This document shows, in pieces, positions 13,069-16,257 of a stretch of 64,000 bases of DNA. The translations under genes and the position numbers were made by a program. Each line of letters starts with the position of its first letter. Position 1 is the stretch's first letter. The notes under the pieces are model-generated. The model ran no database searches, was not told the DNA's origin, and saw only the letters and a list, made by a program, of their open reading frames with translations. This stretch comes from Escherichia coli (lineage in GTDB: Bacteria > Pseudomonadota > Gammaproteobacteria > Enterobacterales > Enterobacteriaceae): assembly GCF_044647545.1 (NCBI RefSeq), contig NZ_CP172818.1; one strand, given 5' to 3'.

Positions 13069-13096
13069 AATTCACTCATGAAAATGAGTTCAGAGA

Positions 13097-13127
13097 ACCG
13101 CAAGATTTTTAATTTTGCGGTTTTTTG
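13097..13127 (+). terminator. Rho-independent terminator downstream of aspV
   Basis: CCGCAA-gatttttaatt-TTGCGG followed by T6. Confidence 0.7.
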
Positions 13128-13393
13128 TATTTGAATCCCGCCATTTCTCTGTTCAATGATTTTACTCTAGCGTAAGTGCGTGATTCTCGCTTGTTGTCTC
13201 ATTCATTAAAATTCAATAATGATATCGAGCCATTCAGCTTAAATATATTTTCAGAGAATAATTTTATATTGATTAAGTGAATGTATATTTCAAATTGATT
13301 TTATTTGTTATTATTTAAGTGGGGTATATAATTAGAGTTCGTTATCAGTGCTAAATATTCTAATCATTATGACAGGCGAGGGAGTGTCCGATT

Positions 13394-14179
13394 ATGAATT
13401 CAAAAAAGGTTTGTTGCATATGTGTGTTATTCTCGCTGCTTGCAGGATGTGCCTCTGAATCTTCTATTGATGAAAAGAAGAAAAAAGCTCAAGTCACACA
13501 AAGTAATATTAATAAAAATACCCCCCTGCAACTGACAGACAAAGATTTATTCGGTAATGAAACCACTCTGGCCGTATCCGAGGAGGATATTCAAGCTGCG
13601 CTTGATGGAAATGAGTTCCGCGTTCCCCTTAATTCTCCTGTAATACTTGTTCAATCCGGCAACCGCGCACCGGAAACCATTATGCAGGAGGAGATGCGAA
13701 AATATTATACTGTTTCCACATTCTCTGGTATCCCGGACAGGCAAAAGCCTCTGACTTGTAACAAAAACAAAGATAAAAATGAGAACGAGGATGTTGCCAG
13801 TGCTGAAAATATGAACTGGATGCAGGCATTGCGTTTTGTGGCTGCGAAAGGGCATCAGAAAGCGATTATTGTTTACCATGATACGTTGCAGACAGGAAAA
13901 TATGACACTGCACTGAAATCAACAGTATGGTCCGATTATAAAAATGAAAAAATTACTAACACAATCTCACTGCGCTATCTGGTGCGATTCACGCTGGTGG
14001 ATGTAACTACAGGTGAGTGGGCTGCCTGGTCGCCGGTGAATTATGAATATAAAGTGCTTCCACCATTGCCCGGCAAGAATGAAGCCAGTACGACTGATAT
14101 GACAGAGCAGCAAATCATGCAACTTAAGCAAAAGACCTATAAAGCGATGGTAAAAGATTTGGTTAACCGCTATCAATAA
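13394..14179 (+). CDS. yafT: Lipoprotein YafT
   Basis: 261-aa ORF with lipobox (LLAGCAS); AT-rich. Confidence 0.85.
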
Positions 14180-14328
14180 TAAATTATATCTGCCGCCAGG
14201 AATTTCTGGCGGCAATAATACAGAATTCTTTGCATAAGAAATTTTTTCCTGACAAAGACTGTGCAAAAAAGGACATGGAATCCGGAGTTAAAAACTGTTT
14301 GTTTTAGAATATTTAATTATTTAACTGC

Positions 14329-14796
14329 TTAATCTTCCTTGCGAGAAATATATTCATTATTACATTTCATGCCATTTTTAATATAGGTTGCTCCTGGGAA
14401 AATCCCCGTGTTATTACCGCAGGGGTGATAATTATCATTAACATATCCTGTGACAAAAGGAGCTATTAAAGGTGCTATTACGATAGCTATTAGTAAAAAT
14501 ATAAGAGTTAGCTGTATTGTTATGTCTGTGGCGAAATTGATTACCTTTGTTTTTTTTATTAAGAATGATTTTATTATCGTTAGTAAAATTACATGAATAT
14601 TTAACAAGGAAAACGATATGAAACCGAAGCATAGAATCAACATTCTCCAATCATAAAATATTTCCGTGGAGCCTTTTATTATTGAATATAGAGGTTTAAT
14701 TCCGGTAAAAAACAAAGATGCATTGAATGCAGGGAAAAATAATATGGCTATAAAAAACATCGAAAGAAACTCTTTCAATTTAACATGTAAACGCAT
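14329..14796 (-). CDS. ykfM: Small polytopic membrane protein (YkfM-like), AT-rich
   Basis: 155-aa hydrophobic ORF; very low GC. Confidence 0.6.
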   Translation of the reverse strand: MRLHVKLKEFLSMFFIAILFFPAFNASLFFTGIKPLYSIIKGSTEIFYDWRMLILCFGFISFSLLNIHVILLTIIKSFLIKKTKVINFATDITIQLTLIFLLIAIVIAPLIAPFVTGYVNDNYHPCGNNTGIFPGATYIKNGMKCNNEYISRKED

Positions 14797-14810
14797 AGTT
14801 AATCCTCATA

Positions 14811-15098
14811 TCACAGGGGGGTGTTAAGAACATACATAAATGGAGTCATGTTTTCCCTTTTCCATTTATCAAGTTCCTGTTGCCGTTTTAGTCCATCTCT
14901 AATTGCATCTTTTAATTTTTCTGATAAATGGTATTGAACATCGATTTCATTTAAAACAACTGTACACACTATCCCCGTAAGTAAAATTGCTCCTCCTACA
15001 AGAATTACTGGAAGGCCAAAACTAAGACAGGCAAAAGAAGCCAGGCTTCCAATAGCGGTTGCAACACCGCCTGCAATCACTGCTTTGGCCACATCCAT
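14811..15098 (-). CDS. yafU: Small membrane protein (YafU-like)
   Basis: 95-aa ORF with two predicted TM helices; start uncertain. Confidence 0.55.
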   Translation of the reverse strand: MDVAKAVIAGGVATAIGSLASFACLSFGLPVILVGGAILLTGIVCTVVLNEIDVQYHLSEKLKDAIRDGLKRQQELDKWKRENMTPFMYVLNTPL

Positions 15099-15150
15099 TG
15101 AAAAATCACCAAGAAAATTAACCAGATCTCGCTCTGAACTCGTAATAAAT

Positions 15151-15335
15151 TCTATGGTTCTGCTGATTTAACCGCAGAAAAGTTCGCCACAGCAATCCGA
15201 AACCACTGGCACGTGGAGAATAAGCTGCACTGGCGTCTGGACGTGGTAATGAATGAAGACGACTGCAAAATCAGCGAAAGAGGAAACGCCGCAGAATTAT
15301 TTTCAGGATACGGCGCATCGCTATTAATATTTTGA
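15151..15335 (+). pseudogene. yafF: C-terminal fragment of an H-repeat (ISAs1-family) transposase
   Basis: Translates to ...[53 protein letters not shown], the conserved ISAs1/H-repeat C-terminus; no N-terminal part. Confidence 0.75.
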
Positions 15336-15477
15336 CGAATGATAAGGTATTTAAGGCAGGGTTAAGACGTAAGATGCGAAAAGCAGCTATGGACAGAAAC
15401 TATCTGGCGTCAGTCCTTGCGGGGAGCGGGCTTTCGTAGTCTTCCCCGACTCTCCCCGGCCTTAAATACAACACCAC

Positions 15478-16257
15478 TCACCACAACCTAAACTCATCCG
15501 CATCCCGCCATGCCGGAAACTTTTCTCTATATTCCCGCAATGCCACCATCGACAGCTCCGCATCAATGCGCGTTGCCTGATGCGCGTCGGCAGTAGCGAT
15601 AATCTCGCCCTGTGGATTAATCACCCTGCTGTCACCACGATAATGGCAGCCGTTGCCATCGCTGCCGACGCGATTGCATCCCGCCACATACGCCTGATTC
15701 TCAATCGCGCGGGCTGTCAGCAATGCCTGCCAGTGCAGAGAGCGCGGAGCAGGCCAGTTGGCGACGTACAGGGCGAGGTCATAATCGTTGAGATTGCGCG
15801 ACCACACAGGAAAACGTAAGTCGTAGCACACCAGCGGCAAAATACGCCAGCCGCGCCATTCCACAATCACTCGCGCATTGCCCGCTTTATAATGCAGATG
15901 CTCATCTGCCATGCGGAACAGATGACGCTTATCATAAAAATGTACCGTGCCGCCCGGCTCAACCAGCAAAAAGCGGTTAACCGAACCAGACTCCGTTTGT
16001 AATGCAACACTGCCTGCAATCAGCGCATTGCACTGCTGCGCCTTAGCTGTCATCCAGTTCACTACGTCATTTTGTGCTAGCGACGAAGCTGCCGCTTCCA
16101 TGGCAAAGCCGCTGGTAAACATCTCCGGTAGAACGATCACATCGCGCCCGGTAATACCTTCCAGTTGACGATCAAAATGGCGCAGGTTGGCAGGGCCATC
16201 CATCCACACCAGTGGTTGCTGCAAAAGCGTAATCTTCAAACCAGGCACGGTGTACAA
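15478..16257 (-). CDS. yafV: Omega-amidase, nitrilase/CN-hydrolase superfamily
   Basis: 259-aa ORF with CN-hydrolase fold signature (catalytic Cys context LVCYDLRFP). Confidence 0.85.
   Translation of the reverse strand: MYTVPGLKITLLQQPLVWMDGPANLRHFDRQLEGITGRDVIVLPEMFTSGFAMEAAASSLAQNDVVNWMTAKAQQCNALIAGSVALQTESGSVNRFLLVEPGGTVHFYDKRHLFRMADEHLHYKAGNARVIVEWRGWRILPLVCYDLRFPVWSRNLNDYDLALYVANWPAPRSLHWQALLTARAIENQAYVAGCNRVGSDGNGCHYRGDSRVINPQGEIIATADAHQATRIDAELSMVALREYREKFPAWRDADEFRLW

Follow-up and report, generated by a model that had tools for sequence, protein, structure and literature searches.

The AT-rich segment directly after the tRNA gene aspV in the window (the whole 64-kb stretch of Escherichia coli DNA analysed here) is best explained as the deletion scar of an aspV T6SS/Rhs island in which YkfM persists as an orphan immunity protein against Tme-armed neighbours, a reading to which we assign a probability of about 0.78. 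Illegitimate recombination over a 5-nt microhomology joined tme at codon 186/187 to approximately codon 255 of the yafV-adjacent ISAs1 copy. The deletion took with it the entire secretion apparatus along with the VgrG/Rhs modules and the effector's N-terminal part, so that what survives is yafT, tmi (ykfM) in intact form, and dead stumps of the effector (yafU') and of the IS. YkfM, a DUF1240-like inner-membrane protein, would neutralise cognate Tme, a toxin predicted to depolarise and permeabilise the membrane from the periplasmic side, and in a T6SS-less cell it would guard against injection of Tme by E. coli neighbours armed with a T6SS; such strains account for about half of those sequenced. 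Feature coordinates are collected in Table 1.

Table 1 Features of the aspV–yafV region (window coordinates).
Feature	Coordinates	Strand	Basis or detail
tRNA-Asp (GTC) aspV, left anchor of the island	12992..13068	+	ARAGORN; Rfam RF00005, 67.7 bits
Whole variable segment, aspV to conserved part of yafV	13075..15490	.	blastn with EC958 empty site
Hairpin AACCGCAA...TTGCGGTT and T-run, likely aspV terminator	13096..13126	+	Read from sequence
Promoter-like site TTGTTA-16-TATAAT, upstream of yafT	13305..13332	+	Consensus match, 10/12; predicted
yafT, lipoprotein, putative PF25851 member, lipobox LLAG|C with Ala at +2	13394..14179	+	261 aa
GC-rich hairpin between convergent yafT and ykfM	14190..14215	.	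10 pairs, 7 G-C
ykfM, intact 155-aa membrane protein, DUF1240-like Tmi, predicted Tme immunity	14329..14796	-	Identity, position, profile comparison
yafU', last 116 codons (residues 187-302) of tme	14811..15161	-	Comparison with full-length gene
Longest ORF in yafU', 95 aa, starts MDVAK	14811..15098	-	ORF list
Deletion junction, GTTCT microhomology common to tme and yafV-adjacent ISAs1 copy	15157..15161	.	Alignments
ISAs1 (H-repeat) transposase 3' fragment, ~codon 255 to stop	15162..15439	+	NCBIfam NF033564; Pfam DDE_Tnp_1
Island-side spacer after IS, with last 4 codons and stop of yafV	15440..15490	.	Comparison with empty-site strains
yafV, 2-oxoglutaramate amidase, core gene, right anchor	15478..16257	-	ORF; relatives' annotation

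A variable segment between aspV and yafV

A blastn comparison of the window with the ST131 strain EC958, which has an empty site, revealed that homology stops at about 13074 and restarts at 15491, and that EC958 carries 104 unrelated bases between these breakpoints in place of segment 13075–15490; the limits of 13069–15480 given in an earlier note on this DNA are therefore essentially exact. The AT-rich tract described there is also real. GC content is 0.378 over the segment and falls to 0.30–0.43 across 13000–15200, while the left ~2.1 kb (13075–15161) has a GC content of 0.361, the lowest among 2087-bp intervals in the whole 64 kb (mean 0.524, s.d. 0.053). The segment is not universally conserved: of 5426 complete E. 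coli genomes, 757 lack it and have aspV and yafV 98 bp apart; hcp together with full-length tme was present in 2571 of the same genomes, and the same junction as in the window in 370, mostly laboratory clones of K-12.

Adjacency to a tRNA gene, atypical composition, variable presence and a transposase remnant were thus all confirmed. The integrase and tRNA repeat also expected of tRNA islands were absent: there is no integrase ORF in 13069–15490, the aspV 3' end, for whose direct repeats the earlier note had proposed a search, recurs nowhere in 12000–20000 (12–25 nt searched, with up to 3 mismatches at 14–25 nt), and a general repeat search returned nothing beyond chance AT-rich matches. The view that the segment is old is upheld: between two haplotypes, yafT, ykfM and tme have diverged at synonymous sites (0.08–0.12) as much as the neighbouring core genes dnaQ and yafV (0.06–0.11), and the same arrangement is present beside dnaQ in Salmonella.

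The parent island and the deletion junction

The window is 99.9–100% identical to MINF_9A over 1–15161 and 15421–37500, and beyond 15161 MINF_9A has tme at full length, followed by hcp and a complete T6SS. The full island of EC11 (~42 kb) has the order aspV, yafT, tmi (ykfM), tme (full yafU), hcp, vasL, tssM...tssB, hcp, vgrG, Rhs, immunity genes, ISAs1 copies, yafV, ending in ISAs1 copies beside yafV, and the 3' end of ISAs1 abuts yafV in 3187 of 5426 genomes. Compared with such intact islands, the window has just the two ends and zero core T6SS genes, and its structural origin from one of them is firmly established. The island type has been described as T6SS2 in GI-16 of APEC IMT5155 and as 'T6SS/1 subtype i1' in mastitis strains, and the 37-kb aspV-associated T6SS fragment of EHEC EDL933 belongs to the same type. 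The E. coli aspV island and the Salmonella islands SPI-6 and SPI-20 occupy a common site between aspV/yafT and yafV, the gene order is common to MINF_9A, EC11 and a Salmonella contig, and the window segment resembles SPI-20 in its low-GC sub-regions and lack of flanking direct repeats. In O157, the slot after hcp holds a different cassette encoding a DUF1311/LprI-like protein and two others.

Alignments place the deletion, across the 5-nt microhomology, at 15161|15162, and K-12 and BS-04 share this junction. To its right, the C-terminal ISAs1/H-repeat transposase fragment recognised in the earlier note is real, matching positions 260–302 of 314 in NCBIfam NF033564 (E 2.9e-16; 59.6 bits against a cut-off of 70 bits) and Pfam DDE_Tnp_1 (E 6e-4). 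Intact islands have copies of this Rhs-associated, ISAs1-family H-repeat among the Rhs core and orphan modules by yafV, whereas the fragment in the window spans ~118 codons, lacks the 5' two-thirds, is not a complete IS with a full DDE transposase and both ends, and is frameshifted, with two indels and ~5 changes absent from every other copy; it is therefore not mobile.

An identical junction was found on two haplotypes ~4% apart. Among the 5426 complete genomes, the best match to the window's junction variant was 96.7% and no ISAs1 copy exceeded 96.6% identity to the fragment, and exact-protein look-ups for this variant returned only T6SS-positive or otherwise rearranged contexts. A reference-guided assembly artefact as the source of the K-12-like junction is excluded because the ISAs1 piece differs from that of K-12 at 10 of 275 positions.

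The effector stump and its predicted immunity gene

Two small membrane proteins had been described between yafT and the transposase fragment, and this holds for ykfM, whereas yafU is the remainder of a 302-aa gene. Nor can their function be called unknown, as both fall in the published Tme/Tmi effector–immunity family, an assignment that for YkfM draws on profile–profile similarity and gene position. The Vibrio parahaemolyticus pairs Tme1/Tmi1 and Tme2/Tmi2 resemble the E. coli pair in having at the C terminus a Tme domain that contains DxxK, a transmembrane helix and Asp, in the position of the effector gene right after a T6SS gene (hcp), and in the small multi-helix DUF1240-like gene immediately downstream (PMC7046647). 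The family table of that study contains the exact E. coli accessions: WP_022645204.1 has a Tme domain at 122–277 (E 4.65e-37) with Hcp 43 bp upstream, and the gene given at 14 bp downstream encodes WP_022645203.1, the MINF_9A protein to which YkfM is 100% identical (Fridman et al. 2020, Suppl. Data 5, PMC7046647). For Vibrio Tme1/2, experiments have demonstrated T6SS-dependent delivery, periplasmic toxicity accompanied by depolarisation, and rescue specific to the cognate Tmi (Fridman et al. 2020, PMC7046647). The E. coli pair is, by comparison, known from sequence, no experimental test of such a pair having been found in the searchable literature, and in the window the effector is cut to its last 116 residues, the T6SS is gone and the immunity gene is an orphan.

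The stump retains the DxxK motif (MDVAK, residues 208–212), the hydrophobic helices and the flanking Asp. Its N-terminal 186 residues are gone, and with them any complete T6SS-loading part (extension, PAAR, MIX, VgrG or ImpA); yafU' in the window is a pseudogene fragment, non-functional as a Tme member. Full-length tme (302–304 aa) adjoins hcp in MINF_9A, EC11 and M719, and hcp lies 43 bp upstream of tme in MINF_9A, EC11 and Salmonella, a linkage deleted in the window; in Rahnella, a tme/tmi pair adjoins an orphan hcp. A profile search recovered 704 relatives whose conserved part lies at the C terminus, with a PAAR domain at the N terminus in 4 of 10 long, distant relatives and DUF4280 in 1 of 10, and M-D-x-x-K, Pro237 and Asp260 were invariant in a 10-sequence alignment. 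As a check against secondary insertion of tme or the T6SS, homologues of other genera were found to be collinear across residue 186/187. Full-length YafU gave nothing usable against Pfam and NCBIfam and, in a sequence search of solved structures, matched only AhlB, non-significantly (E 1.2) and for a hydrophobic hairpin; its AF2 model was poor (mean pLDDT 49.5).

YkfM has 3–4 hydrophobic helices in its 155 aa and its gene lies 14 bp from tme, in agreement with the Tmi pattern of a small protein with 3–6 transmembrane helices encoded directly downstream of tme. Direct comparison of YkfM with Pfam and NCBIfam gave nothing usable, with no hmmscan match to DUF1240 (PF06836) at E up to 10, and a sequence search of solved structures returned EmrB noise alone. 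The Salmonella DUF1240 protein at the same position is 51% identical (E 1e-48) and itself scores E 0.62 against DUF1240 by scan, yet carries DUF1240 in precomputed data. Profile–profile alignment (hhalign) of YkfM with four DUF1240 match-bearing proteins, one above the Pfam cut-off and three just under, gave a probability of 98.1% (E 7e-14, 149 columns), and the motifs YDWR and YHxC..G.F.G..Y.K...C are common to both. By profile–profile similarity and position, YkfM is placed as 'DUF1240-like', as Tmi is defined in PMC7046647, and immunity against Tme is, from homology and gene position, its most likely activity.

Purifying selection on ykfM and yafT is indicated by dN/dS values of 0.30 and 0.15, respectively, although the haplotypes compared also occur in T6SS-positive strains and the ratios therefore say nothing of selection in T6SS-less cells. 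Across genomes, ykfM occurs in 2997, compared with 2571 that have the tme 5' part and hcp, and on several contigs tme is frameshifted or IS1-truncated while ykfM is intact. Orphan immunity genes described for T6SS of Vibrio cholerae and Bacteroidales, among others, likewise remain intact beside a lost or broken effector in cells that may meet armed relatives; ykfM differs from those in standing singly, not in an array, and its protection is predicted.

An alternative interpretation is that the segment is a scar without present function, in which ykfM and yafT are intact just because the deletion is recent. The stump protein is identical to the T6SS-positive allele of its own haplotype, in the window and K-12 alike, which suggests that the flanks have had little time to decay, and a consensus scan established no ykfM promoter. 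Moreover, junction carriers are mainly K-12 clones, so that intactness of ykfM there is weak evidence for function. We nevertheless consider this interpretation unlikely because the two indels and ~5 unique changes of the ISAs1 stump point to long decay while the adjacent ykfM is still intact, ykfM is also intact in several independent contexts in which tme is inactivated, and ykfM::Tn5 in K-12 shows hyperlethality to nalidixate, mitomycin C and peroxide (PMC2824699). Exposure to Tme is, in addition, plausible, since about half of E. coli carry tme and hcp.

It is improbable that either yafU' and ykfM form a toxin–antidote pair derived from the decayed effector–immunity pair or the junction is a recurrent, mechanism-driven deletion on the two haplotypes. 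The specific proposal that yafU' is still made and membrane-active, with ykfM kept to neutralise its product, would, if true, account for the stress hyperlethality of ykfM::Tn5 in K-12, and it is consistent with a stump that has the whole conserved Tme core from DxxK onward and an ATG, placed exactly at MDVAK, that follows GGTGAT. We consider it very improbable because the stump is without a signal peptide, the original promoter and hcp-linked operon are lost, and Tme1 is non-toxic and Tme2 weakly toxic from the cytoplasm (Vibrio, PMC7046647). Finally, the earlier note's view of a small self-contained islet, acquired horizontally and integrated at aspV as a unit, fits the tRNA adjacency, low GC, transposase fragment and absence from 757 genomes but deserves almost no credence, given the lack of an integrase and of an aspV 3'-end repeat, the collinearity of both ends with the two ends of a 25–42 kb T6SS/Rhs island, the severing of yafU and the ISAs1 gene mid-gene at a single junction, and the full-length homologues in E. 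coli, Salmonella and Rahnella.

With the segment read as a deletion scar bearing orphan immunity, two long-unexplained K-12 'y-genes' gain a testable role: ykfM as a predicted orphan T6SS immunity gene, and K-12 yafU as the stump of the membrane-disrupting effector paired with it. T6SS killing assays use laboratory K-12 as their standard prey, and a resident immunity gene against a toxin of about half of E. coli could skew them. Apart from these roles, the segment is textbook island decay, ordinary overall and largely known, all its parts having been described previously.

yafT and the flanking signals

The lipoprotein reported in the segment is YafT, recognised by its lipobox. It is of the outer-membrane type, and its gene always lies at the border of this T6SS type, as seen in several genera; it is likely to be an accessory or immunity factor. 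Although hmmscan of YafT against a local Pfam copy gave no match and NCBIfam yielded nothing usable, PF25851 is a precomputed match for the 261-aa proteins at the same position in W-haplotype genomes and for all 120 homologues listed. Its structure model is of moderate confidence (mean pLDDT 61). The PGAP name 'aminopeptidase' for YafT is unsupported.

The tRNA was the sole match in an Rfam search at E up to 0.1. The likely aspV terminator, missed by a consensus scan because its loop exceeds 8 nt, sits within the variable segment, and empty-site strains carry another hairpin, GCCCGAATCA...TGATTCGGG at the corresponding place in EC958. The hairpin between yafT and ykfM is, from its sequence, likely to act as a two-way terminator, and promoter-like sites in the region are no more numerous than in shuffles. 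At the right border, the C terminus of yafV reads ..EFRLW* on the island side compared with ..EFTFR* in empty-site strains.

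Origin of the segment by deletion within a T6SS island

Beyond the aspV hairpin the GC content falls to 0.30-0.43, and the value of 0.361 at 13075-15161 is the lowest of all 2087-bp stretches in the 64-kb window (mean 0.524, s.d. 0.053). All ORFs listed in the earlier note, namely yafT, ykfM, the yafU frame and the ISAs1 fragment, were found in the window.

Features of the segment between aspV and yafV, in window coordinates
Feature	Coordinates	Strand
aspV, tRNA-Asp (GTC)	12992-13068	
Hairpin and T-run 3' of aspV	~13096-13126	
yafT	13394-14179	+
ykfM	14329-14796	-
yafU frame	14811-15161	-
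ISAs1 C-terminal fragment, frameshifted	15162-15439	+
yafV	15478-16257	-

In the empty site of the ST131 strain EC958, 98 bp separate aspV from yafV; homology to EC958 ends at window position 13074 and restarts at 15491 within the last yafV codons, so that the yafV C-terminus differs between the two states (..EFRLW* in the window versus ..EFTFR* in EC958). Occupied sites reveal what once lay between. Over 1-15161 and 15421-37500, MINF_9A matches the window at 99.9-100% identity; beyond 15161 it carries the remainder of a 302-aa gene (full-length yafU) followed by type VI secretion system (T6SS) genes in the order hcp, vasL, tssM, tssA, vasI, tssH, tssL, tssK, tssJ, tagH, tssG, tssF, tssE, tssC and tssB, then a second hcp, IS debris and yafV. 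In EC11 the island is complete (~42 kb) and additionally carries vgrG, an Rhs core, a gene for a sel1 protein, orphan Rhs fragments and ISAs1 in three copies; the final ISAs1 copy lies directly against yafV. Collinearity with MINF_9A and EC11 means that the window retains only the two ends of a T6SS island. They are joined at 15161|15162, where tme (yafU) codon 186/187 meets approximately codon 255 of the yafV-adjacent ISAs1 with GTTCT microhomology, showing that the segment originated by deletion within the island.

No integrase gene was found among the segment ORFs, and the aspV 3' end was not found repeated around the segment; aspV is also used in Salmonella, for SPI-6 and SPI-20. The earlier note described the segment accurately and, in interpreting it as a small, old islet of unknown function, was right about its age, since its divergence matches that of the core flanks, but not about its size, as these are two ends of an island that measures ~42 kb in EC11, nor about its function, as ykfM and yafU belong to the Tme/Tmi family. 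The feature is an ordinary, essentially known one: a scar left by a familiar T6SS island, in which a predicted orphan immunity gene from an already described family persists.

Predicted effector, immunity and lipoprotein genes

Full-length YafU had no match in Pfam or NCBIfam, and its close homologues are scarce, amounting to 19 clusters from Escherichia, Salmonella and Rahnella, in every case followed by a gene for a small DUF1240-marked membrane protein and adjoined by hcp. The Tme family of membrane-disrupting effectors is defined by a C-terminal domain that combines DxxK with a transmembrane helix and an Asp, and Tmi, its immunity family, by DUF1240 or DUF1240-like proteins (Fridman et al. 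2020, PMC7046647). In Vibrio, periplasmic Tme1 and Tme2 are lethal through membrane depolarisation and permeabilisation, and only the cognate Tmi rescues (PMC7046647). Supplementary Data 5 of that study lists the MINF_9A protein WP_022645204.1, its Tme domain at 122-277 (E 4.65e-37), together with an Hcp encoded 43 bp upstream and, 14 bp downstream, WP_022645203.1, which is the window's YkfM. The present analysis agrees with that listing: M-D-x-x-K and Asp260 are invariant in a sequence alignment, and a profile search returned 704 relatives conserved in their C-terminal part; of 10 long relatives, 4 carry PAAR and 1 DUF4280 at the N-terminus. YkfM had no match when searched directly against Pfam, and matched a profile of DUF1240 hit-bearing proteins with 98.1% probability (E 7e-14). 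Sequence relationships and gene position assign yafU to Tme, as a predicted effector, and place ykfM with the DUF1240-like Tmi, as its predicted immunity partner.

The window's stump, yafU', spans residues 187-302 and keeps the core of the domain, beginning shortly ahead of DxxK; it and the IS piece are probably relics, and YkfM probably still acts as immunity to Tme delivered by armed E. coli. A K-12 ykfM::Tn5 mutant shows hyperlethality to nalidixate, mitomycin C and peroxide (PMC2824699), so ykfM is not silent in K-12.

YafT probably belongs to PF25851, is conserved across Enterobacteriaceae (65-95% identity) and has a predicted PelC/LptE-like lipoprotein fold. In Salmonella, Hafnia and Lelliottia its gene directly adjoins a T6SS of this same type, at the hcp-vasL end, and in E. 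fergusonii its neighbours are small immunity-like genes; YafT would have a T6SS-linked role. The name 'aminopeptidase', given to some alleles by the NCBI pipeline (PGAP), is unsupported by family searches or the predicted fold.

Among 5426 complete E. coli genomes, ykfM is present in 2997, the tme 5' part with hcp in 2571 and the ISAs1 3' end abutting yafV in 3187; 757 have the empty site and 370, mostly K-12 derivatives plus BS-04, the exact window junction. Among contigs bearing the 95-aa yafU' ORF (L024-L029), several that are T6SS-positive have tme broken by frameshifts, and in one, L025, an IS1-associated deletion truncates tme and reaches beyond fadE; in most of these contigs ykfM remains intact at 155 aa. 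O157:H7 (L006 21816-23164) has a different cassette between yafT and hcp, encoding 149-aa DUF1311/LprI-like, 198-aa and 73-aa proteins, which suggests that the slot downstream of hcp is an exchangeable effector-immunity slot. Tandem DUF1240 genes, two per locus, lie near the hcp/vasL end in Hafnia alvei (L014 10721-12233) and Salmonella (L013 8926-11010) and resemble small immunity-gene arrays of the Tmi type.

A junction shared by two haplotypes

Two haplotypes, ~4% apart, extend from dnaQ through the island: W (the window and MINF_9A) and K (K-12, BS-04, EC11 and M719). Between them, dS (dN/dS) is 0.105 (0.03) for dnaQ, 0.122 (0.15) for yafT, 0.085 (0.30) for ykfM, 0.079 (0.24) for tme and 0.061 (0.13) for yafV; island divergence is in step with the core flanks, which argues that the island is old and vertically inherited in both lineages.

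The same yafU'::ISAs1' junction occurs in the window and in K-12, yet each is (nearly) identical on both sides to its own haplotype's T6SS-positive allele, both haplotypes also existing with the full T6SS. Comparison of 15142-15162 with four other loci (L002, L003, L007 and L008) places the final haplotype-specific SNP at 15142, which leaves just 19 nt before the junction. The cause is either flank conversion, extending as far as the heterology borders, on a single old deletion allele, or two separate occurrences of one deletion. The sole difference from MINF_9A within the matched region, 15162-15420, contains ~5 changes that none of the ISAs1 copies in the collection shares, which argues for an old ISAs1 relic. 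The yafV-adjacent ISAs1 of MINF_9A is an internally deleted derivative common to ATCC 8739, with ~125 N-terminal codons fused to the last few codons (L004 3960-4085, L005 20325-20700) at a ~10-nt repeat, GC(A/G)GG(A/G)GAGCG; the two derivatives sit on different flanking haplotypes.

Other structural differences in the window

The rtcB'-prfH' deletion (28419-29179) has the K-12 structure, with alignment contiguous through the K-12 junction at 95.3% identity; the junction lies at ~28643 with ~9 nt of overlap (28635-28643). On the left, its flank matches MINF_9A, a strain with both genes intact, at 100% identity; on the right, identity is 93-95% to K-12 and to MINF_9A alike. This locus behaves like the yafU'::ISAs1' junction, combining a K-12 junction with a MINF_9A-identical left flank. 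After thrW, a CP4-6-like prophage region (37500-47491, with IS30 at ~45065-46311) is collinear with K-12 at ~99% identity, and MINF_9A parts from the window at 37500; the window thus mixes K-12-like structure with MINF_9A-like SNPs. The Flag-2 (lateral-flagella) cluster remnant at 23433-25146, with truncated flhA fused next to lafU and annotated likewise in K-12 and MINF_9A, is another deletion scar within the same 64 kb. At 7974-8022, in the interval from yafD to the methyltransferase gene that comes next, the window differs slightly in structure from MINF_9A and from K-12 (12 nt in the window versus 171 nt in MINF_9A).
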